From an uncultured Anaerolineales bacterium (GTDB lineage: Bacteria; Chloroflexota; Anaerolineae; CAZSIG01): 29,194 bases of DNA. Numbering within the stretch: the stretch's first letter is position 1; the number at the start of each line of letters is the position of its first letter. The stretch lies in contig CAZSIG010000001.1 of assembly GCA_964606195.1 (NCBI GenBank), forward strand, positions 1 to 29,194. Direction: 5' to 3'. Made by a program: the position numbers and the translations under genes. The notes below the pieces were generated by a model that saw nothing but the letters and a program-made list of their open reading frames with translations, ran no database searches and was not told where the DNA came from. Positions 3,084-25,454 of the stretch are shown here, piece after piece.

Positions 3084-3152
3084 TGGGCATTGATGATGTA
3101 ATTATTTTTTCCAATGCTGGGTTAGTCTTCCTATTGGAACAGGAGGTGAAAG

Positions 3153-3437
3153 ATGGATACATTAACGGTAGCTATGACCTTACCGCGTGACCTTTTGGGC
3201 GCGCTAGATGTTCCACAAATCAGGCTAGAAGCTAAACTGCGCGAATTAATCGCGCTGGAACTGTTTCGTGAAGAGCGCATCTCTTCTGGCAAAGGCGCGG
3301 AGTTATTGGGTATTTCCAAATGGGAGTTTATCCGCTTGTTGAACAAACATGGCATCTCTTATTTCACAGAATCTCCTGAAGAATTGGAAGCAGAAGTGGC
3401 TATGCTAGAGGCAGTATTAAGGGAACACAGTAAATGA
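3153..3437 (+). CDS. UPF0175 family protein (putative antitoxin)
   Basis: 94 aa with ALELFREERISSGKGAELLGISKWEF…L…GI motif. Strong RBS. ATGA overlap with the downstream PIN gene. Confidence 0.85.
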   Translation: MDTLTVAMTLPRDLLGALDVPQIRLEAKLRELIALELFREERISSGKGAELLGISKWEFIRLLNKHGISYFTESPEELEAEVAMLEAVLREHSK

Positions 3438-3919
3438 TAGTAGTGGCTAATTCGGGTCCCCTAATTTCTTTAGCGCGGGTTGGGCAATTGAACTTGCTGG
3501 AGACGTTATACAATCAATTATATATTCCTCTTGCAGTGCGCGAGGAAGTAGTACACAAGGGGTATGGACTTCCCGGCGCGTCGATGGTTGACGCGGCCTC
3601 CTGGATACAAATTAGGGCAATTCATGATACTGTAGCAGTTCAATTGTTGAGGAAAGAATTGGATGCTGGGGAAAGTGAGGCGATTATACTGGCTGTTGAG
3701 TTGCAAGCTGATTTATTGCTGATTGATGAAGCACGTGGGCGACGTGTGGCAGAGATGCGCGGGTTGTGTAAAACGGGAACACTAGGAACACTAATCGCGG
3801 CGAAGAAACGTTACATCATCTCTGAAGTAACACCATTGCTGGATGACCTCCGAAATGCAGGGGTTCACATGAATAGGGAACTGTATCAGAAAGTCCGCAC
3901 TTTAACAGGGGAAAACTGA
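3434..3919 (+). CDS. DUF3368 family PIN-domain protein (putative toxin)
   Basis: VVANSGPLI start, LDAGESEAI, LLLIDEARGRRVA and GTLGTL motifs typical of COG2405/DUF3368. Confidence 0.88.
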   Translation: MIVVANSGPLISLARVGQLNLLETLYNQLYIPLAVREEVVHKGYGLPGASMVDAASWIQIRAIHDTVAVQLLRKELDAGESEAIILAVELQADLLLIDEARGRRVAEMRGLCKTGTLGTLIAAKKRYIISEVTPLLDDLRNAGVHMNRELYQKVRTLTGEN

Positions 3920-5347: not shown

Positions 5348-5404
5348 TTCTCCCGATTGATTTAACAAACGACTGTTTTTTGAAGGTATTTGAAAGTAAA
5401 ACTA

Positions 5405-5683
5405 ATGGAGTTAGAACTGGAATTCGTTGCTAACGCGTTCAAACATGGCGTTACCGAAGAGGAGATTTGGGAAGTATTTCTCAATGATATGGTTAGATGC
5501 GTTATTGTGAAATACAAAAAGAGTGGAACAGATGTTATCTATAATGCTTATGGTATCACTTATGCGGGCAGATATTTGGAAATTGGATATGTAAGGAAAA
5601 CTGCTTCTCAATACCGCGTAATACATGCTATGGATATGCGCGATGCGACCAGAAAAAGATTTAGAAAAATGAGGAAGCTATGA
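5405..5683 (+). CDS. Putative type II toxin, BrnT/DUF4258-like
   Basis: ~92 aa, AT-rich. GRYLEIGY…YRVIHAMDM resembles BrnT/RelE-fold toxins. Overlaps the downstream gene (ATGA). Start could be TTG 5390 or ATG 5405. Confidence 0.6.
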   Translation: MELELEFVANAFKHGVTEEEIWEVFLNDMVRCVIVKYKKSGTDVIYNAYGITYAGRYLEIGYVRKTASQYRVIHAMDMRDATRKRFRKMRKL

Positions 5684-5970
5684 TGGTGAAACTAGAGAAG
5701 ATACCAGATTTTAAGGATGAGCAAGAGATAATTGCCTTTATGGAACAGCATGATGGTTTTGAATTGGTAGACCGCGGATTGGCGGAGATAGTGAAAACTC
5801 CTGTCTTTTATCGGAAAAACCAGATTGAACTTGACGATGATACATTAGAACTTTTAGATGAATTAATTGCAGCAGGAGTTTGCGAGAATAAACAAGAAGC
5901 GGTTAATAACGCGGTACACAGTTATGTATTAGCAGTGTTGCCGCAGTCTTATAAACTAATGCGGGGATAA
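5680..5970 (+). CDS. Putative antitoxin (CopG/BrnA-like N-terminus, ribbon-helix-helix-like C-terminus)
   Basis: IPDFKDEQEIIAFMEQHD resembles CopG-type antitoxin N-termini. Coupled to the upstream toxin-like gene. Confidence 0.6.
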   Translation: MMVKLEKIPDFKDEQEIIAFMEQHDGFELVDRGLAEIVKTPVFYRKNQIELDDDTLELLDELIAAGVCENKQEAVNNAVHSYVLAVLPQSYKLMRG

Positions 5971-6023: not shown

Positions 6024-7436
6024 ATGCCAAAAAACACCTTCTCTCACAAAACCTACCTATCTCCCTTCACCTGGCGCTATGGCACTGACGCGATGCGCCG
6101 CGTATGGTCGGAGGTGCATAAACGCCGCCTGCTGCGCCGCGTGTGGGGCGCGCTGGCGACCGCGCAGTATGAGGCGGGATTAGTCACCGCGGAGCAGTTG
6201 GCGGATTTGCGCGCGCATAAAGATGATGTGGACATCGTCCGCGCCGCGGAGATAGAGGCGGAAATCAAGCACGACTTGATGGCAGAGGTCAAAACCTATG
6301 CCGAACAGTGCGCGGTCGGCGGCGGCATAATCCATCTCGGCGCGACCAGCATGGACGTGCTGGACAACGTGGACGCACTGCGGGTGCGCGAGAGCCTCGA
6401 TTTACTGCTCGCCGCGACGCGCGCCCTGCTCGCCGACTTAGCCGACTTGATTACCGAACGCGCCGCGCAGCCTTGCATGGCGTTCACCCACATTCAACCC
6501 GCGGAGCCAACCACCGTCGGTTATCGACTGGCACAGTATGGTCAAGATTTGCTGACCGATTATCGGGAGCTGCGCCGCGTACGCGATGGCATTCGCGGCA
6601 AGGGCATCAAGGGCGCGGTTGGGACTTCCGCTTCCTACGCGGAACTACTTGCAGGCACCGGGCTGTCCGCCGCCAAATTGGAAGGGCGCGTGATGGAACT
6701 GCTCGACTTGGCATCGTTCCCCGTCGCTACCCAAACCTACCCGCGCAAGCAAGATTGGTTAGTGCTCAACGCGCTGGTGGGCTTGGCAGGGTCGCTACAC
6801 AAGTTCGCGTTCGACCTGCGTATTATGCAATCCCCCCCGTTTGGCGAGTGGAGCGAACCGTTCAGCGCGAAACAGGTCGGCTCATCCGCGATGCCATTCA
6901 AGCGCAATCCTATCACCGCGGAGAAAATCGACTCGCTGGCGCGGTATGTGGCAACGCTGCCTCGCGTGATGTGGGACAACGCGGCGCACTCGCTGCTAGA
7001 GCGCACGCTGGACGACTCGGCAAATCGGCGCGAAGTATTGCCCGCCGCGTTTCTGGCGGTCGACGAACTGCTAAAATCGGCGGGGCGTATTCTGCGAGAT
7101 TTGCGCATCAATGACTCGGTTATCGCACGCAATTTGACGGTTTACGGCGTATTCGCAGCGACGGAGCGGGTGTTGATGGCGGCAGTGCGCGCGGGCGCGA
7201 ATAGGCAGGAGATGCACGAAGTAATTCGCGAACATTCCCTCGCGGCGTGGGCGGCTGTTCAATCTGGCGGCGGCGAGAACCCCCTGCCGCAAAACTTGAG
7301 CGCGAATGAGCGCATAACGCGGTATTTATCACCGGAGCGCGTGTTGCAGTTGATGGATGCTACCGCGTACGTCGGCGACGCGCCGCAGAGAGCTAGTGCT
7401 CTCGCGGCTGAACTTCGCGCTGTCATCGAAGCATAA
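6024..7436 (+). CDS. purB: Adenylosuccinate lyase
   Basis: Fumarase/ASL signature GSSAMPFKRNP, HDLMAE, IHLGATS and FTHIQPA. Confidence 0.96.
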   Translation: MPKNTFSHKTYLSPFTWRYGTDAMRRVWSEVHKRRLLRRVWGALATAQYEAGLVTAEQLADLRAHKDDVDIVRAAEIEAEIKHDLMAEVKTYAEQCAVGGGIIHLGATSMDVLDNVDALRVRESLDLLLAATRALLADLADLITERAAQPCMAFTHIQPAEPTTVGYRLAQYGQDLLTDYRELRRVRDGIRGKGIKGAVGTSASYAELLAGTGLSAAKLEGRVMELLDLASFPVATQTYPRKQDWLVLNALVGLAGSLHKFAFDLRIMQSPPFGEWSEPFSAKQVGSSAMPFKRNPITAEKIDSLARYVATLPRVMWDNAAHSLLERTLDDSANRREVLPAAFLAVDELLKSAGRILRDLRINDSVIARNLTVYGVFAATERVLMAAVRAGANRQEMHEVIREHSLAAWAAVQSGGGENPLPQNLSANERITRYLSPERVLQLMDATAYVGDAPQRASALAAELRAVIEA

Positions 7437-7527
7437 CTTTTTGTCCTTTATGGGGTTATTAACAAAGAAAGTAGTTATGAGTAACCGGACAAGGTTTCGT
7501 TTGAAAAAAGTACCGCGAAATTGTTGC

Positions 7528-7648
7528 ATATGTCACCCTGAGCGCAGCGAAGGGGCTCGTTGTTGTAATAAAACCGCGTCTGGGGGACAGAAAATACTCC
7601 TCGATAGTGCAAACGGGATGCTTCGCTGCGCTCAGCATGACATGATTA
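7528..7648 (+). repeat. 121-bp palindromic element, left direct repeat of the GIY-YIG gene
   Basis: Arms tgtcaccctgagcgcagcgaagg… and …cttcgctgcgctcagcatgaca. 115/121 identical to 7998-8118. Confidence 0.95.
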
Positions 7649-7692
7649 CTGTATACATTAATACCTCGATATAGATATAGGAGTTCGATGTT

Positions 7693-7980
7693 TTGAATAA
7701 TTACTATGTCTATATCATGACCAATCACTCAGGAACTCTTTATATTGGTGTTACTAATGATTTACAGCGTCGCGTTTGGCAGCATAAGCAAAAGCTCATT
7801 AAGGGTTTCACTAAACGCTACAATATTACGCGGTTGGTCTATTACGAGGAAACTTCTGATATAAAGGCTGCAATCACTCGCGAAAAACAACTAAAGGGTT
7901 GGATACGTAGAAAGAAAATTGTTTTGATAGAATCATGTAATCCTGACTGGAAAGATTTGAGTGACAATTGGTATAAGTGA
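7693..7980 (+). CDS. GIY-YIG nuclease family protein (UPF0213/YhbQ-like)
   Basis: YYVYIM…LYIGVTNDLQRRVWQHK, LVYYEE, AITREKQLKGW and NPDWKDL. TTG start 10 nt after AGGAG. Confidence 0.93.
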   Translation: MNNYYVYIMTNHSGTLYIGVTNDLQRRVWQHKQKLIKGFTKRYNITRLVYYEETSDIKAAITREKQLKGWIRRKKIVLIESCNPDWKDLSDNWYK

Positions 7981-7997
7981 GAGCTTAATTTCGCGAG

Positions 7998-8118
7998 ATA
8001 TGTCACCCTGAGCGTAGCGAAGGGTCTCGTTGTTGTAATAAAACCGCGTCTGGGGGTCAGAAAATACTTCTCAATAGTGCAAACGAGATGCTTCGCTGCG
8101 CTCAGCATGACATGATTA
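7998..8118 (+). repeat. 121-bp palindromic element, right direct repeat of the GIY-YIG gene
   Basis: Direct copy of 7528-7648 at a 470-bp period, with 6 substitutions. The loop is shared too. Confidence 0.95.
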
Positions 8119-8179
8119 GAAATAGCTTGATATTGTCAAAGCAGTCGTTTCACAGAGTTTTCATTGGAGTCGAAGAAAT

Positions 8180-9436
8180 ATGCGTAGTCAAATACCGCGG
8201 GGGGTACAAGACCGCTTCTTAACTGAGGCTGCTCGTTTACGGTGGGCAGAAGCCGCGCTGCGGACACAGTTCGAGCGGTGGGGCTATCAGGAGGTCATTC
8301 CACCTACTTTTGAGCTTTATGATAATCTAGCTGTAGGCGAAGGCGCGGATTTACAGCAAGCGATGTACCGCTTCTTCGACCGCGAAGGATATACCCTCGC
8401 GCTGCGCGCCGACTTCACGCCACAGATGGCGCGCATCGCGGCGACAAAACTGTTCGACCAACCGATGCCACTACGTTGTTTTTACATGGGCAGTCTATTT
8501 CGCTACGAGGAGCCGCAAGCGGGCAAACAGCGCGAGTTCACCCAAGCGGGCGTGGAACTCATCGGCGCGGACACCGTCGCGGGGGATAGTGAAGTAGTGG
8601 CGTTAGCCATCGCCGCGCTAGACGCGTTAGAATTGCGCGATTTTCAGGTTAATCTGGGGCAGATGGCTTTCTTTCGCGCCTTGACTGCTGAACTGCCAAA
8701 TGATGAATTGACCGCTATTCGAGACGCTATCGACCATAAAAACTGCGCCCGCTTGACCGCTGCGTTAGACCGCGCCGAAGTGAGCGGGGCGCGGCGTAAG
8801 CTGCTGCTGCGATTACCATTCATGGTTGGCGATGTGCAAGTGCTGGAAGAGGCGCGTAGGCTCAGTCAAAAGCTGGTCGATGCGGCGTCCGCGCTGGCGG
8901 CATTGGAACGATTGGCGGAGGTTTATCGCCTGCTACAAAATTACGGCGCAGTGAATCGCGTCATCATCGATTTGAGCGAGGTACGCGGCATGGATTATTA
9001 CACCGGACTGACCTTTCGCGGCGTTGCGCCCGGCTTGGGTTGGCCGGTGGTCAGCGGGGGGCGATACAACGATTTCATCGCGCGTTTTGGGCGCCAGATG
9101 GCGGCGGTCGGCTTCGGGTTGAGCGTTGACCGCGTGTTGCTGCTACAAGCGCAACAGAATGTGCCGGTTCCTGCTACGGCTCCACATTTATTGGTACAGG
9201 GCTGCAACCGCACAGCTTGTTTGGAATTGATGACCCAACTACGCCGGCGCGGCTGCCGCGTCGCGGTCGATGTGCTGGGCTTGAGCGCGACGGAGTTGAC
9301 CGAGCAGGCACAGCGGCGCGGCATCCCGCGCACTCTGAGGCGTACTGGCGACGCTTGGCTGCTGTCCGATAAGCGTGGTGAGCATATTATGACCGCCGCC
9401 GCGGTGTTGCATGAAATGGAGAAGTGGCTAGCTTGA
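8180..9436 (+). CDS. hisZ: ATP phosphoribosyltransferase regulatory subunit
   Basis: HisRS-like paralog (IPRGVQD, LALRADFTPQMAR, REFTQAGVELIG, DYYTGLTF, GGRYN) directly upstream of a short-form hisG. Confidence 0.93.
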   Translation: MRSQIPRGVQDRFLTEAARLRWAEAALRTQFERWGYQEVIPPTFELYDNLAVGEGADLQQAMYRFFDREGYTLALRADFTPQMARIAATKLFDQPMPLRCFYMGSLFRYEEPQAGKQREFTQAGVELIGADTVAGDSEVVALAIAALDALELRDFQVNLGQMAFFRALTAELPNDELTAIRDAIDHKNCARLTAALDRAEVSGARRKLLLRLPFMVGDVQVLEEARRLSQKLVDAASALAALERLAEVYRLLQNYGAVNRVIIDLSEVRGMDYYTGLTFRGVAPGLGWPVVSGGRYNDFIARFGRQMAAVGFGLSVDRVLLLQAQQNVPVPATAPHLLVQGCNRTACLELMTQLRRRGCRVAVDVLGLSATELTEQAQRRGIPRTLRRTGDAWLLSDKRGEHIMTAAAVLHEMEKWLA

Positions 9437-9439
9437 GGT

Positions 9440-9504
9440 GTGAGGCGCGAAACGTAAGACGTGAGACATGAAACGTAATGCGTGAAGCCTTGCGCATTAC
9501 GTTT
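9440..9504. repeat. Degenerate 7-bp tandem repeat array ending in a 12-bp hairpin
   Basis: Units gtgaggc/gcgaaac/gtaagac/gtgagac/atgaaac/gtaatgc/gtgaagc. Perfect stem aaacgtaatgcg (9471-9482) / cgcattacgttt (9493-9504). Confidence 0.75.
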
Positions 9505-9547
9505 TGTGTATATGGGAATTTGATGTCAATAGTGAGGAGGTAAGCTC

Positions 9548-13528: not shown

Positions 13529-13749
13529 GGCTTTCTCAAAGTACAAACCGCGTGGTCAAAACCGCTAGTAAGCTCTAGCCCAAGATGTCATGCTGAGCCC
13601 CCGTGCGGGGATAAACTACGCGAAGCATCTCGTTTTCGCTATAATTATTACCTGATGATTAGAACCACCAAAATTAATGGGAGAACGAGACCCTTCGCGG
13701 CGCTCAGGGTGACATATTATTCCAACCACGCGACTTTGAGAAAGCCTTA
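13526..13749. mobile_element. MITE (224 bp) with 17-bp TIRs and a perfect 9-bp target duplication
   Basis: TIRs tagggctttctcaaagt / actttgagaaagcctta (16/17). TSD ctttttagc at 13517-13525 and 13750-13758. Confidence 0.9.
13585..13717 (-). repeat. Solo copy (reverse orientation) of the GIY-YIG-flanking palindrome family
   Basis: atgtcatgctgagc…gcgaagcatctcgttt and aacgagacccttcgcggcgctcagggtgacatat match the reverse complement of the 7998-8118 arms. The loop differs. Confidence 0.9.
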
Positions 13750-16328: not shown

Positions 16329-18179
16329 ATGAAAATACTTAGGTTTTGTTCACTCGTTCTCGCCACCGCGGTTGTAGTTGCTACGCTATCACTATCCAAC
16401 AGTTCCCCCACACTAGGGCAACAACCCGCGCCGCTGAGCACGCAGCCAATCACTGACAAAGAATTAGTACGCAACGGTGATTTCGCCCAATACGATAGCT
16501 ATAACAAACCTAACGGGTGGATTGTGGCAGAGGGAACTGGCAGTGCTGTCAACGTTTCTGCGGGGCAAGATGGCGGTCCCGTGATGTCGATGGAAGCGAT
16601 TATGGAGACGCAAGCATCGCTCTATCAAGAACTGCGACTCCCCTCACAGACGACGAGCGCCGCGTTGGTTTTCGATTACCGTTTGTTGCTACCCGATTAT
16701 CCCGCTGGCGGCGCGGCGCAGTTTTATGCCCAGGTTGAGACGACCAGCGGCCTAATCGCGAACCTCCTGACCACCCCCGTGGTCAACTCTGATACCGGCT
16801 GGCAAAGCTTCAATAGCTCCCTCGATAGCGCGGTGGTGGCACAGATTCAATCCGCCCACGCCGCGGGACAAGCGGTGTACCTCACTTTTTACCTGCTTCA
16901 GAACCCCGCGAACTCTATGAAGGCTTACCTCGATAACGTCTCTTTTCGCGTCAGCGGCAGTATGAACTATCCCACCTTGAGCGGCAGCATCGCGTACGTC
17001 GGCTTTGATGAGCATGGCTATCCTAAAACGGTCAAGCGCATCGACCCCGATGGCAGCAACCACCAAACTCTATGGACGCATCCCAGCACGATTCCCAGCA
17101 CCAACGCGATCTATGATGTGGCATGGAAGCCGAACGCCGGTGAAATCGCGTTCAGCAGTAACCATGAGTCCATATATTCCGCGTTTCACTCCGATGTCTA
17201 CGGCATTAAGCCGGACGGCAGCGGTCTGCGCCGCATCACCAATCCCCCCGCCAAATCGGAAATCGATGCCGGCGGCTATCAAATGGGCACAGTGTCGGGC
17301 ATAATACACAATAACTACGGCAATGTCATCACTTTTCTCCTGTATATCGAGGGCGCACAAGATGCCATCGCGGTGGATATTGGCAATTTTAACGACCAGG
17401 TCAATTTTACCGTTCCCAATGTGGCAGATTTAGGCGCGGGATTTCACTACGCGGTTTTTACCTGGTCTGACGGCAGCAATGCCAACTGCAAAGAGTATGC
17501 CGCCGCGGTCGTAAATGTTATCCCCGGACAAACAGTAGACGCAGGTACACTTACCTTCGGCGGCACATGCGGTACATACGAGAGCACCAGCATTTCCTGG
17601 AAACGCGACGGTTCTTATGTGGGTGTCGATGTGATCGCGCCGCGCAAATTTCTCGCTACAGGCGAAGCGCTCGGCTCTGACCTCTTCACCGCGCCCCTCA
17701 CCGCCGACGAGTTAGCGTGGTCGCCGGTAGATGACCGCATTCTTTACCGCAACCTGCTCGTCAGTGGTGACAAGGGTATCTATCTAACCACGGAAAACGG
17801 CGGCACAGGCACCTGGCTAGTTGACGAGGGATACGCGGTGTGGGTCACGCCCGCGTGGCTGCCTGACGGCTCAGGTTTTATCTACACCATAGACCATCAA
17901 ATTCGCCATTACAACCTCGCGAATAACCAAGATACCCTCCTCGCGAATTTTTATAATGAATACGTTTTTAACCCCAGCGTGTCACCGAATGGCGGATACG
18001 TGGTATTCGAGTGGCAGACCAACGCGAACCCAGTGCAAAAAGACCTCTGGATTATGGATCGCAGCAATCCGGTAGAGATGTGGGCACTGACCACCGATGG
18101 CAAGAGCACCGACCCCGATTGGAGCCACCAAACCGCGCCGTCTAGTTACAAAGTCTATCTGCCCGCGATATTGAAATAG
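16329..18179 (+). CDS. Secreted protein: signal peptide, CBM-like beta-sandwich, TolB/PD40-type beta-propeller, C-terminal VYLPAILK motif
   Basis: Hydrophobic N-terminus (MKILRFCSLVLATAVVVATL), LVRNGDF, YLDNVS, repeated W[SK]P[DN]G-like blades and terminal YLPAILK. Confidence 0.8.
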   Translation: MKILRFCSLVLATAVVVATLSLSNSSPTLGQQPAPLSTQPITDKELVRNGDFAQYDSYNKPNGWIVAEGTGSAVNVSAGQDGGPVMSMEAIMETQASLYQELRLPSQTTSAALVFDYRLLLPDYPAGGAAQFYAQVETTSGLIANLLTTPVVNSDTGWQSFNSSLDSAVVAQIQSAHAAGQAVYLTFYLLQNPANSMKAYLDNVSFRVSGSMNYPTLSGSIAYVGFDEHGYPKTVKRIDPDGSNHQTLWTHPSTIPSTNAIYDVAWKPNAGEIAFSSNHESIYSAFHSDVYGIKPDGSGLRRITNPPAKSEIDAGGYQMGTVSGIIHNNYGNVITFLLYIEGAQDAIAVDIGNFNDQVNFTVPNVADLGAGFHYAVFTWSDGSNANCKEYAAAVVNVIPGQTVDAGTLTFGGTCGTYESTSISWKRDGSYVGVDVIAPRKFLATGEALGSDLFTAPLTADELAWSPVDDRILYRNLLVSGDKGIYLTTENGGTGTWLVDEGYAVWVTPAWLPDGSGFIYTIDHQIRHYNLANNQDTLLANFYNEYVFNPSVSPNGGYVVFEWQTNANPVQKDLWIMDRSNPVEMWALTTDGKSTDPDWSHQTAPSSYKVYLPAILK

Positions 18180-18183
18180 CGGA

Positions 18184-18257
18184 CGGCGTTATAGGGATAA
18201 CGCCCTAACTAGGACTTTCTCATTGTCGCGGGGCGGCGTTATAGGGATAACGCCCTA
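18184..18257. repeat. Two identical 24-bp REP-like palindromes
   Basis: cggcgttatagggataacgcccta at 18184-18207 and 18234-18257 (stem ggcgttat/ataacgcc). Confidence 0.85.
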
Positions 18258-18280
18258 GCACCGCGTACTATAGACGCAGT

Positions 18281-18350
18281 CCCTATTGTCGCGTACCACA
18301 GAGCGCAATCCCTATTGTCGCGTATCACAGGGCGCAATCCCAATTGCGCC
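18281..18350 (+). repeat. 29-bp tandem repeat (2 full copies plus partial copies)
   Basis: ccctattgtcgcgtaccacagagcgcaat / ccctattgtcgcgtatcacagggcgcaat / cccaattgcgcc. Confidence 0.8.
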
Positions 18351-18373: not shown

Positions 18374-20110
18374 ATGAAAATCGAATCCCTGATTTCCGCC
18401 CACGTTCACGAACTACACCCCTACGAACCACCCGACCGCGTCGCGCTGGCTAAACGCGCCGGTATTTCCCCCACCCGCCTGATGCGCCTCGACGCCAACG
18501 AGAATCCCTACGGCATCTCCCCCCGCGCCGCCGCCGCGCTGGCGCGGTTTGACGGCTACAGCGTTTACCCCAACCGCCGAGCGATAACCACCGCGGTGGC
18601 GCACTACGCCGGCGTCGCGGAGAACCAAGTAGTGCTGGGCAACGGCGGCGACGAGGTAATCGACATGATCACGCGCACCTTCATCGAGCCGAGCGACGCG
18701 ATTATCATCTGCCCGCCATCGTTCGGTATGTACGCCATCAGCGCGGCGGCGCATCGCGGTGAAGTGTTGAGTGTCCCGCGCCGCGCAGATTGGTCTTTGG
18801 ATGTAGAGGGGATAGAAAAGTTGGTGAATAACGCCGCGGCGGAGACGCGCCCGAAGTTGCTCTACGTCATCTCGCCGGGCAACCCGGAGGGTTTGGCGAT
18901 TCCGCACGATACGATCAAGCGGTTGTTGCAGTTGCCCCTCGCGGTTGTCGTGGACGAGGCATACATCGAATTCGGCGGTGAGACGATTGTTCCGCTGATA
19001 GGCGCGCATTCTAATCTGATTGTGCTGCGCACTTTCAGCAAGTGGGCGGGCATGGCGGGGCTGCGCTTAGGCTACGCGGTCACTTCTGCGGAGATCGCCG
19101 CGTTCATGGAACGAGTGCGCATTTCGCACAACGTCAACGCGGCAGCGATCGCGGCGGGCTTGGCAGTTTTAGAGGATATAGATTACGCGCGTTCGATCAT
19201 CAAGAACATCGTCACCGAGCGCGAGAGGTTGTACAACGCGCTTGACGCCATGTCGGGGGTACACCCGATTCCTAGTCAGGCTAATTTCGTACTCTCTTAT
19301 CTCGATAACCATGTTGGTCAAGAGATAAAAGACGCGTTGGTGCGGCGCGGTATTCTGATTCGTACTTACTCCGATGCGAAATTGGCGAACGCCATTCGCA
19401 TCACGGTTGGGCGTCCTGCACAAAACGACGCGGTAATCACTGCGCTGGCGGATATTCTGAAGGTTTCCGTCCCGCCGATGATTCGAGATGCCCGTCACCT
19501 TGAAGGTAATGAGCATTTGGCAGTACCGCGCCACGCGCAAATCGAGCGGAGCACACGCGAGACCGAGATCGCGGTCGATTTGCATCTCGATGGTACGGGA
19601 CAGTATGAAATCAGCACTGGCTTGGGATTTTTGGACCACATGCTGGCACAAATCGCGGCGCATGGGTTGTTCGACTTGACCGTGCAGGCGCGCGGCGATT
19701 TGGAGATAGATGAACATCACACCGTTGAGGATGTGGCGATTGTGTTGGGGCAAGCGATAGACGCGGCGTTGGGCGATCGGCACGGCATCGTGCGCATGGA
19801 GCACGCCTACGCGCCGCTCGATGAAACTCTGGCGCACATCGTCGTGGATTTGAGCGGACGCCCCTACGCGGTCGTAGATGCGGAGTTCACCACGCCACGC
19901 GTCGGCGCGGTCGGCACCGATCTCATCGCCCATTTTTTGGAAACCCTAGCGTTCCACGCGCGCCTGAGTCTGCACGCTCGCGTACTTTACGGACGCAATG
20001 ACCATCACAAGGCAGAGGCTTTGTTCAAGGCGTTAGGACGCGCCCTAGATGCCGCGACGCGGTTAGATGCGCGGCGCGTTGGCGTACCTTCAACTAAGGG
20101 GATTTTGTGA
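18374..20110 (+). CDS. hisC-hisB: Fused histidinol-phosphate aminotransferase / imidazoleglycerol-phosphate dehydratase
   Basis: N-terminal HisC ([30 protein letters not shown]), ~25-aa linker, C-terminal IGPD ([30 protein letters not shown]). No stop between the domains. Confidence 0.95.
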
Positions 20111-20113
20111 GAG

Positions 20114-20183
20114 GTAAAACGTAATGCGTGAAACGAAAAAGGCGCGAATGGTAAACTAAATAGGGCGCAGTATATACTGTGCC
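20114..20183. repeat. Three 7-bp units plus a REP-like palindrome
   Basis: gtaaaac/gtaatgc/gtgaaac (16 nt identical to 9471-9486), then tagggcgcagtatatactgtgcc with a perfect 12-bp palindromic core. Confidence 0.55.
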
Positions 20184-25294: not shown

Positions 25295-25386
25295 TGAGGA
25301 GCGCAGCGCCGAAGAATCTCGCGCTACACCGGATTATTACTTCCTGAACCGAGATTCTTCGCTCCCGGTGGTCGCTCAGAATGACA
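25295..25386. repeat. Divergent solo member of the GIY-YIG-flanking palindrome family
   Basis: tgaggagcgcagcgccgaagaatctc…gagattcttcgctcccggtggtcgctcagaatgaca. Same gcgcagcg/gaag…tctc and gctcag…tgaca skeleton. The left tgtca end is lost. Confidence 0.7.
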
Positions 25387-25454
25387 TCCTATCGCGAAGT
25401 CTCGTTGTAGTGTTAGTATCCTCCTCTATTCTCGCATCACTAATCCCCAAGCCG

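Follow-up and report, generated by a model that had tools for sequence, protein, structure and literature searches.

A putative Ssn-family GIY-YIG nuclease gene between duplicated hairpin doublets of a variant motif in a Chloroflexota-like genome

Introduction

The Ssn family of GIY-YIG nucleases, together with the hairpin repeats that accompany its genes (NTS and Ssn-related motifs, SRMs), has been described by Chenal et al., Nat Commun 2025 (PMC11893778). The present analysis concerns a 29,194-nucleotide stretch of contig CAZSIG010000001.1 (the whole of which is hereafter called the window), in which a 95-aa GIY-YIG open reading frame (ORF) between purB and hisZ is flanked by two copies of a 121-nt repeat. 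A first reading of this DNA (the original prediction) left it unsettled whether such an arrangement had been reported before; it has been, as Ssn and its SRMs (PMC11893778). On the assignment argued below, the window contains a new example of that system, which adds a variant of the motif and some details of architecture to what has been published.

SsnA of Neisseria meningitidis (NMV_0044/NMB0047) is a 94-aa single-domain GIY-YIG protein (CDD cd10448, GIY-YIG_unchar_3), which binds the NTS hairpin repeat (CGTCATTCCCGCGMAVGCGGGAATCYRG) as single-stranded DNA (ssDNA) only and cuts a few nucleotides upstream of it (PMC11893778). The enzyme is inactive on double-stranded DNA (dsDNA) carrying the motif, on RNA and on the complementary strand, and it binds no RNA; the substitutions Y6A, Y17A and E64A abolish cutting (PMC11893778). 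Cleavage is controlled by the three bases 5' of the palindrome and binding by the C that follows it, while dRS3 corresponds to the palindromic core of the NTS (PMC11893778). Biochemical data are available for four Ssn homologues, the homology criterion for the family being E<1e-10 to Neisseria SsnA; Ssn-related motifs lie near 71% of the homologues and on both sides of 42% (PMC11893778). Furthermore, the NTS-ssnA-NTS arrangement was noted as insertion-sequence-like and likened to IS200/IS605 and to repetitive extragenic palindromes (REPs), and deletion of ssnA in N. meningitidis was found to raise transformation with NTS-bearing DNA about 5-fold (PMC11893778).

The Cassette and its Assignment to the Ssn Family

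The gene and its flanking repeats are arranged as follows, the names ssn and SRM being used in keeping with their probable assignment.

7528-7648, plus strand: R1, putative SRM doublet consisting of a left arm, a spacer of about 50 nt and an inverted right arm (direct repeat family D1).
7529-7560, plus strand: R1 left arm (TGTCAC-CCTGAGCGCAGCGAAGGG-GCTC), recognised by covariation and by nhmmer (E=6.4e-7) with a hidden Markov model (HMM) built from foreign loci.
7536-7539/7551-7554: proposed stem of the R1 left arm, with tandem G.A at 7540-41/7549-50.
7542-43/7547-48: proposed GC pairs of the R1 left arm, with a GCA triloop at 7544-46.
7613-7644, minus strand: R1 right arm (TGTCAT-GCTGAGCGCAGCGAAGC-ATCC), nhmmer E=1.6e-8, with an exact core match at 7621-7635.
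7693-7980, plus strand: ssn, ORF for a 95-aa single-domain GIY-YIG protein, with a TTG start and GGAG 9 nt upstream.
7998-8118, plus strand: R2, putative SRM doublet in the orientation of R1 (family D1, 95% identical to R1).
7999-8030, plus strand: R2 left arm (SRM), nhmmer E=1.3e-7.
8083-8114, minus strand: R2 right arm (SRM), nhmmer E=4.3e-9.

The 95-aa ORF matches the Pfam family GIY-YIG (PF01541) over residues 3-75 (E=1.2e-15, 58 bits against a cutoff of 22.6), and no second Pfam family exceeds its threshold, leaving the protein with neither an extra domain nor a transposase domain. With the group I intron endonuclease model TIGR01453 the score was 19.2 bits, well short of the cutoff of 56. 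The gene has an intergenic location on the chromosome, and a small AT-rich GIY-YIG gene between purB and hisZ, as first proposed, is borne out by the ORF call, the Pfam match and the GC content.

A tblastn search located one matching site in two N. gonorrhoeae chromosomes (55% identity, E=2e-21), and pairwise BLASTP of the window protein against the 94-aa ORF at that site gave 55% identity at E=1e-31. The gonococcal ORF possesses Y6, Y17 and E64 and is surrounded by canonical NTS copies, partly as inverted pairs; from its length, its NTS flanks and the positions of these residues we infer that it is the NMV_0044 orthologue. This Neisseria locus was drawn from the PLSDB entries NZ_CP119140.1 and NZ_CP119142.1, 2.17-Mb N. 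gonorrhoeae "plasmids" that are evidently chromosomes. In an alignment of 14 diverse homologues, Y7, Y17, R27, H31, E64 and N83 of the window protein are invariant, and its Y7, Y17 and E64 share invariant columns with Y6, Y17 and E64 of the Neisseria ORF. Similarity to the UPF0213 representative 1ZG2 (BH0048) is weak (E=1e-4), and the window protein is thus no close member of UPF0213.

Four oriented hairpin arms flank the gene, each with a 5' GTCAY, a palindromic stem and a C after the stem, the features by which an SRM is recognised. Homology to SsnA, the catalytic Y, Y and E residues and the flanking SRMs together argue that the window gene is a member of the Ssn family and that its repeats are SRMs, and this assignment of family and function is given a probability of roughly 0.85. 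Shared with the Neisseria system are a single GIY-YIG domain of about 94 aa (55% identity) with the catalytic Y, Y and E, and oriented hairpins (5' GTCAY, 3' C) located on both sides of the gene as well as at other intergenic sites, with inverted pairs in N. gonorrhoeae too. The two differ as follows: the motif interior in the window reads CTGAGCG-N-AGCGAAG (with a GNA triloop and tandem G.A), where Neisseria has the perfect stem TTCCCGC/GCGGGAA, the host is a Chloroflexota-like metagenome-assembled genome instead of a member of the Pseudomonadati, and in the window the whole 121-nt doublet, spacer included, is directly duplicated on the two sides of the gene.

Repeats in the Window

The repeat finder returned one direct-repeat family around the gene, consisting of two 121-nt copies that are 115/121 identical (95%) and lie 470 nt apart from start to start, in agreement with the original prediction as to length, orientation, identity and period. 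Its description of the repeat as a 121-bp palindrome holds in so far as each copy folds as a long imperfect hairpin (-29.9 kcal/mol as DNA, z=-5.2, none of 200 shuffles as good; -54.6 kcal/mol as RNA, z=-4.9). The unit is nevertheless not one palindrome but two separate inverted motifs of about 30 nt, each oriented (TGTCAY, hairpin, ATCY) and placed head-to-head around the spacer of about 50 nt. As the stem of the left arm is CC..GG and that of the right arm TG..CA, each arm is complementary to itself and the two arms mismatch each other there, the mismatches forming two internal loops in the long inter-arm fold. Such heterotypic arm pairs are present in 16 of 20 doublets from the window and related loci, which suggests that selection acts on single-arm hairpins and not on the long inter-arm hairpin.

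Two further doublets occur in the window away from the gene.

13584-13717, minus strand: solo SRM doublet flanked by hisD and a GNAT gene, in the opposite orientation to R1 and R2 and with an unrelated spacer (inverted-repeat pairs I1 and I2).
25299-25388, minus strand: solo degenerate SRM doublet, intergenic, with nhmmer E=5.7e-6 for its minus arm (25349-25388).

The minus arm of the former (13685-13716) was found by nhmmer at E=1e-3 and its plus arm as split matches, while the plus-strand arm of the latter lacks the 5' TGTCAY. Alignment confirmed the proposal of solo relatives at about 13.6 and 25.3 kb that have the arms in common and the spacer unrelated, and the HMM from foreign motifs finds their arms. 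The window therefore holds four SRM doublets within 29 kb, all of them intergenic. The plus-strand arm of the 13.6-kb doublet carries a 20-nt insert (13597-13616) with a small hairpin of its own (CCCCGTGCGGGG), precisely at the site expected for the GNA minihairpin, and a 9-nt loop insert is found at the same place in the 25349-25388 arm; inserts at the minihairpin site are also seen in foreign arms of loci L005, L059 and L060.

Association of the Repeats With Homologous Genes

At E<=1e-5, over 5,000 relatives of the 95-aa ORF are found. The set of loci used for comparison comprised 80 loci from species-representative genomes and one Planktothrix plasmid locus (81 in total), distributed over Chloroflexota, Cyanobacteria, Bacteroidota/Ignavibacteriota, Acidobacteriota, Bacillota, Planctomycetota, Pseudomonadota and candidate phyla. 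The core CTGAGCGNAGCGAAG, searched with <=2 mismatches, occurs at 2.40 per kb within 300 bp of the gene and at 0.080 per kb in the other 385 kb (a 30-fold enrichment); it is present within 300 bp in 50 of the 81 loci and on both sides in 22. The check set by the original prediction, namely that flanks of homologues should carry repeats of the same family, thus came out in its favour (2.40 against 0.080 motifs per kb). Loci without the core display other hairpins in the same TGTCAT-stem-loop-stem-ATC frame, often as near-identical inverted arms of 24-39 nt located 10-40 nt from the gene ends and including locus-specific extras.

The arms are biased in orientation, those upstream lying mostly on the gene strand (47:17) and those downstream mostly on the opposite strand (33:17). 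The foreign-arm HMM recovers all four arms around the window gene (E=4e-9 to 6e-7) as well as the arms of both solo doublets. Direct repeats of at least 50 nt surround ssn in 20 of the 78 loci with enough flank, and whole doublets with their own spacers are duplicated around the gene in Clostridia (L014, 83 nt), Deltaproteobacteria (L023, 84 nt), Acidobacteriota (L059, 178 nt) and Planktothrix (L083, 92 nt), so that the locus-specific shared loops looked for by the original prediction are found in several loci of other phyla. Nucleotide similarity between loci ends at the ORF boundaries, the ORF and the arms being the only conserved parts, which argues that there is no larger conserved element body.

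The Motif Variant

The consensus of the motifs around the homologues is TGTCATYCTGAGCGNAGCGAAGRATCT, which agrees with the NTS in its 5' GTCAY, its hairpin and its 3' C. The arm structure proposed from it consists of an outer stem of 4-5 bp, tandem G.A/A.G pairs, two G-C pairs and a G-N-A triloop. Covariation is seen in the outer stem of 105 distinct arms taken from other genomes (T-A in 34, C-G in 25 and G-C in 12 at position -1/+15) and also in their inner pairs (G-C in 89 against A-T in 8), and the N of the triloop is free. The Ssn clade in question, whose members come from Chloroflexota, Cyanobacteria, Acidobacteriota, Bacillota and candidate phyla, has a variant motif, TGTCAY-CTGAGCG-N-AGCGAAG-RATCT, in which the frame (5' TGTCAY, hairpin, 3' ATCY) is kept and the interior is different. 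None of the papers searched has the variant core in such a context.

Some results weigh against the Ssn assignment or narrow it. Single arms fold no better than their shuffles under the nearest-neighbour model (about -3.7 kcal/mol, z -1.0 to +0.6). The single-arm hairpin is therefore drawn from covariation and from what is known of tandem G.A and GNA triloops: exceptional stability is a feature of d(GCGNAGC) minihairpins and of tandem sheared G.A pairs, and the nearest-neighbour model gives them no credit. The published degenerate search pattern for SRMs, HGTCWYN(0-2)YYVSBRHN(0-5)WNVSBRGN(0-2)RNCYNB, which is an operational search pattern and no biological definition, has no site in the window as against 9 in the 3.3-kb N. 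gonorrhoeae locus; it occurs near 2 of the 81 homologue loci, the variant core near 50. As the published pattern misses the window arms, the window motif is a variant, and its cleavage is a prediction. Likewise, activity, strand specificity and cut positions in the window clade are extrapolated from proteins of 55% identity.

Relation to Other Described Systems

The original prediction had likened the locus to REPs and their RAYT transposases with a different catalytic fold, a reasonable analogy that is already drawn in PMC11893778. Common to both are a small single gene flanked by cognate hairpin repeats and dispersed intergenic inverted doublets (REP/REPIN; a likeness of architecture only), and the recognition of hairpins on ssDNA, which for ssn is known from its relatives. 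The chemistry differs, in that RAYTs act by Y1 HUH tyrosine transesterification in the manner of the IS200/IS605 TnpA, while ssn would act by GIY-YIG hydrolysis. As the GIY-YIG reaction has no covalent intermediate, excision and reintegration by Ssn alone are not expected.

In Neisseria, dRS3 and the intergenic mosaic elements form units of 50-150 bp that are bounded by inverted dRS3 and sometimes occur in arrays. The doublets resemble them as short units bounded by inverted copies of a hairpin motif; they differ in core sequence and organism, and four are visible in the 29 kb of the window. GIY-YIG homing endonucleases such as I-TevI have the same catalytic domain and are likewise associated with DNA that moves horizontally, whereas ssn has no DNA-binding domain, intron or dsDNA target, and its relatives act on ssDNA only. 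Nor does the cassette conform to a classical insertion sequence, as it lacks a transposase domain and a short target-site duplication (TSD), although its SRM arms resemble terminal inverted repeats (TIRs). The original prediction, which found no transposase, TIR or short TSD, accordingly stands for the transposase domain and the short TSD.

Horizontal Transfer and Mobility

Ssn has metagenomic relatives of up to 85% identity and cyanobacterial ones of 70-75%, and the best HisZ relative in a search of 5.8 billion proteins is 68% identical. The GC content of ssn is 36.1% and its GC at third codon positions (GC3) 38.5%, against 61/72% (GC/GC3) for purB and 59/64% for hisZ in a neighbourhood of about 60% GC. 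Since the identity of Ssn exceeds that of HisZ and its GC and GC3 lie below those of the neighbours, the cassette looks to have been acquired horizontally by the Chloroflexota-like genome. A GC content below that of the flanks is found in 82 of 82 loci (mean gap 10.6 points), the gap in the window being among the largest.

Contig JBUDUC010000072.1 (L001) comes from a strain that is 98.7% identical over 10 kb (131 single-nucleotide polymorphisms, SNPs, and no indels), with the cassette at the same site. Five of these SNPs fall in R1 (7555, 7587, 7599, 7603 and 7616) and none in ssn or R2; all five turn R1 to the R2 state, so that the copies differ at 1 position in L001 against 6 in the window. 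This points either to gene conversion between R1 and R2 or to the import of a patch that was itself recombinant; both would fit, as SNPs are patchy throughout. A scan of metagenomes with HisZ yielded 39 loci with identities of <=72% (<=67% full-length), none of which has purB or ssn upstream of hisZ; as there is no close relative in the collections, no empty purB-hisZ site is obtainable.

Presence and absence of the gene can be compared between two Planktothrix agardhii plasmids. On p1 of strain No.66 (NZ_LR882964, L083:2190-3060), an MmeI-type gene and DISARM drmA enclose an array in which ssn separates the third doublet from the second. On p1 of strain PCC7805 (NZ_LR882951, L136:1860-2300), three doublets are contiguous with 9-nt linkers and without ssn, a PIN toxin-antitoxin pair being present instead further on. 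The ssn segment of No.66 (L083:2454-2859) has no counterpart in PCC7805 and is bounded on both sides by T(G)TCATTCTGAG, the 5' part of an arm. As both arrays have three doublets, the differing unit is the gene alone and not the gene plus one repeat, which is mild evidence against a 470-bp circle and against a doublet-length target duplication. The originally proposed unit of gene plus one repeat, carried on a circle of about 470 bp, is therefore not favoured; no such circle was seen. On these plasmids the doublets are also flanked by partial arms in tandem, in units of 23 nt and 32 nt that break off within the hairpin, and both loci lie within a defence island (MmeI-type/BREX PglX, DISARM drmA).

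In Rhizobium, ssn is present on the CIAT894 plasmid, 1 of 117 plasmids sharing the neighbouring peptidase gene, and absent from more than 100; a clean junction is lacking, since the intergenic sequences have nothing in common. On a plasmid of Rhizobium tumorigenes (L138:2900-3860), about 950 bp without an annotated gene lie downstream of ssn, between it and htpG; copies of 87-94% identity exist on other replicons of related strains, and the stretch may be an SRM-rich mosaic array. Identical proteins were not found in new contexts (P0064 on 24 contigs and P0120 on 5 each keep one context), which gives no sign of recent transposition, and comparison of the loci gave no short TSD or common target outside the arms. 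Nuclease-driven spread, as the original prediction had it, is hypothetical.

Proposed Mechanism

By homology with the characterised enzymes, Ssn would bind one arm extruded as a hairpin on ssDNA, in an orientation-specific manner via the 5' TGTCAY and the C after the stem, and would hydrolyse the strand in a Mg2+-dependent reaction a few nucleotides 5' of the motif, with no action on duplex DNA or RNA. From the arm orientations, cuts are expected at the outer edges of each doublet and on opposite strands: near 7520-7530 and 7990-8000 on the plus strand (left edges), and near 7645-7655 and 8115-8125 on the minus strand (right edges). The original prediction had the nuclease cutting a cruciform. 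Characterised homologues cut ssDNA only and are inactive on motif-bearing dsDNA (PMC11893778), and cruciform cutting is thus not what the relatives do.

The gene and its repeats would have been acquired horizontally, as a cassette, into an intergenic site, and the solo doublets at 13.6 and 25.3 kb would be further targets or derivatives. The role of the cassette may be selfish spread via nick-stimulated recombination, or control of incoming or recombining ssDNA as in Neisseria; we lean slightly towards a selfish or semi-domesticated cassette. GIY-YIG enzymes are hydrolytic, form no covalent intermediate and cannot rejoin DNA, so any spread would depend on host replication and repair, speculatively by conversion of nicks to breaks at replication forks followed by recombinational copying between SRM-bearing sites. 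A more ambitious proposal is that the cassette of ssn and its SRMs moves by a mechanism of a new type, in which an ssDNA-specific GIY-YIG enzyme would nick each strand at the outer doublet edge, the host would copy the gene in, whole doublets of 80-190 bp would sometimes be duplicated as a very long target duplication, and the gene-less doublets would be progeny similar to miniature inverted-repeat transposable elements (MITEs); taken with all of its parts, this is improbable.

Alternative Explanations

Two readings of the role of the cassette are compatible with the Ssn assignment, and the standing given to each is conditional on it. The first holds that SRM-ssn-SRM is a selfish, autonomous cassette, in which the nuclease brings about both the insertion of the unit and the dispersal of MITE- or REPIN-like doublets that lack the gene, and a functional analogue of RAYT/REP or IS200/IS605 that combines a hydrolytic GIY-YIG ssDNase with host repair and ligation; we regard this as a serious but tentative possibility. 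It is favoured by the TIR-like geometry (the arm bias of 47:17 upstream and 33:17 downstream), the near-identical 24-39-nt inverted arms 10-40 nt from the gene ends at many loci, the direct repeats of at least 50 nt in 20 of 78 loci (several of them whole doublets), the horizontal-transfer and low-GC signatures, the presence or absence of ssn in the P. agardhii arrays and on 1 of 117 Rhizobium plasmids, and the erasure of 5 of the 6 R1/R2 differences in the 98.7%-identical strain. Set against these are the lack of any excision product, circle or clean empty site among the loci seen, of a short TSD and of a conserved target outside the arms, the single context kept by identical proteins on many contigs, and the end of inter-locus nucleotide similarity at the ORF ends. 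Moreover, a GIY-YIG enzyme without a covalent intermediate cannot rejoin DNA by itself, and in Neisseria the gene is fixed in the chromosome and its phenotype is one of the host (PMC11893778).

That phenotype, the ~5-fold rise in transformation with NTS-bearing DNA upon deletion of ssnA in N. meningitidis (PMC11893778), is a point for the second reading, by which Ssn and its dispersed SRMs serve a domesticated host function as an ssDNA "restriction" or recombination-modulating system that would cut SRM-bearing ssDNA when it enters the cell or becomes exposed. The dispersal of four SRM doublets in intergenic DNA of the window is in line with it, as is the location of homologues in Planktothrix defence islands (MmeI-type/BREX, DISARM) and of another beside an SNF2/PLD helicase. 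It sits poorly with the recently acquired look of the window gene (a GC3 gap of ~25-35 points) and with the absence of any PADLOC defence family match, and is likewise a tentative possibility, a little less likely than the first.

The two remaining alternatives are very improbable. The repeats could be ordinary intergenic hairpins (terminators, mRNA stabilisers or structured RNA) that adjoin ssn by coincidence, as their intergenic location and the good folding of the doublet as RNA would allow; against this, they are enriched 30-fold beside homologues across phyla, their arms are oriented and keep a non-palindromic 5' TGTCAY, SsnA of N. meningitidis binds no RNA (PMC11893778), and neither an Rfam family nor a terminator-like site was found. 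A classical dsDNA homing endonuclease of the I-TevI kind, or a housekeeping UPF0213/YhbQ or Slx1-like repair nuclease, would account for the GIY-YIG fold and the weak similarity to BH0048 (UPF0213, E=1e-4), but the 95-aa protein has no DNA-binding or zinc-finger domain, stands in no intron or phage context and is far closer to SsnA (E=1e-31) than to UPF0213.

Other Features of the Window

The neighbours of the cassette are as follows.

6024-7436: purB (Lyase_1/ADSL_C), upstream neighbour of ssn.
8180-9436: hisZ (tRNA-synt_His-like), downstream neighbour of ssn.

At its outward end, the right arm of R2 supplies a -35-like hexamer (ATGACA) directed towards hisZ, and a promoter-like sigma-70 site at 8107-8136 on the plus strand, with downstream GATATT/TATTGT, is aimed at hisZ (a consensus match only). 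No Rfam RNA was detected at gathering thresholds in the whole window, and a relaxed search of 7400-8250 gave matches at chance level only (the best, AaHKsRNA41, at 20.6 bits against a gathering score of 97).

The purine/histidine gene stretch of the window has gathered several small accessory cassettes. Between carB-like/purA and purB there are two gene pairs that resemble toxin-antitoxin systems, a UPF0175/DUF3368 pair at 5390-5970 and overlapping ORFs of 97 and 96 aa at ~3150-3919, the second of these ORFs with a weak CopG-antitoxin match. Other repeats are also present. In the intergenic region 18181-18340 (between the ORFs 16329-18179 and 18374-20110), a 27-nt hairpin-containing repeat (GGRCGGCGTTATAGGGATAACGCCCTA) occurs twice, 50 nt apart, and is followed by about three tandem 29-nt units (CGCARTCCCTATTGTCGCGTAYCACAGRG); both kinds of repeat are unrelated to SRMs. 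A short repeat (GTGAG...GAAACGTAATGCGTGAA) occurs twice after hisZ (9440-9510), where it forms a terminator-like hairpin with GCGCATTACGTTTT, and again at 20107-20132, after the ORF ending at 20110.

Implications

In the window itself, the cassette splits hisZ from purB, and the -35-like hexamer of its outward arm could affect the expression of hisZ. For the family as a whole, the published estimates of SRM association are probably too low because the published pattern misses the variant motif. The duplications of doublets, the heterotypic arms and the presence or absence of the gene in Planktothrix provide concrete material on the mobility of Ssn, a question left open in PMC11893778. Furthermore, the variant Ssn and its motif constitute a new enzyme/site pair available for the development of ssDNA tools.

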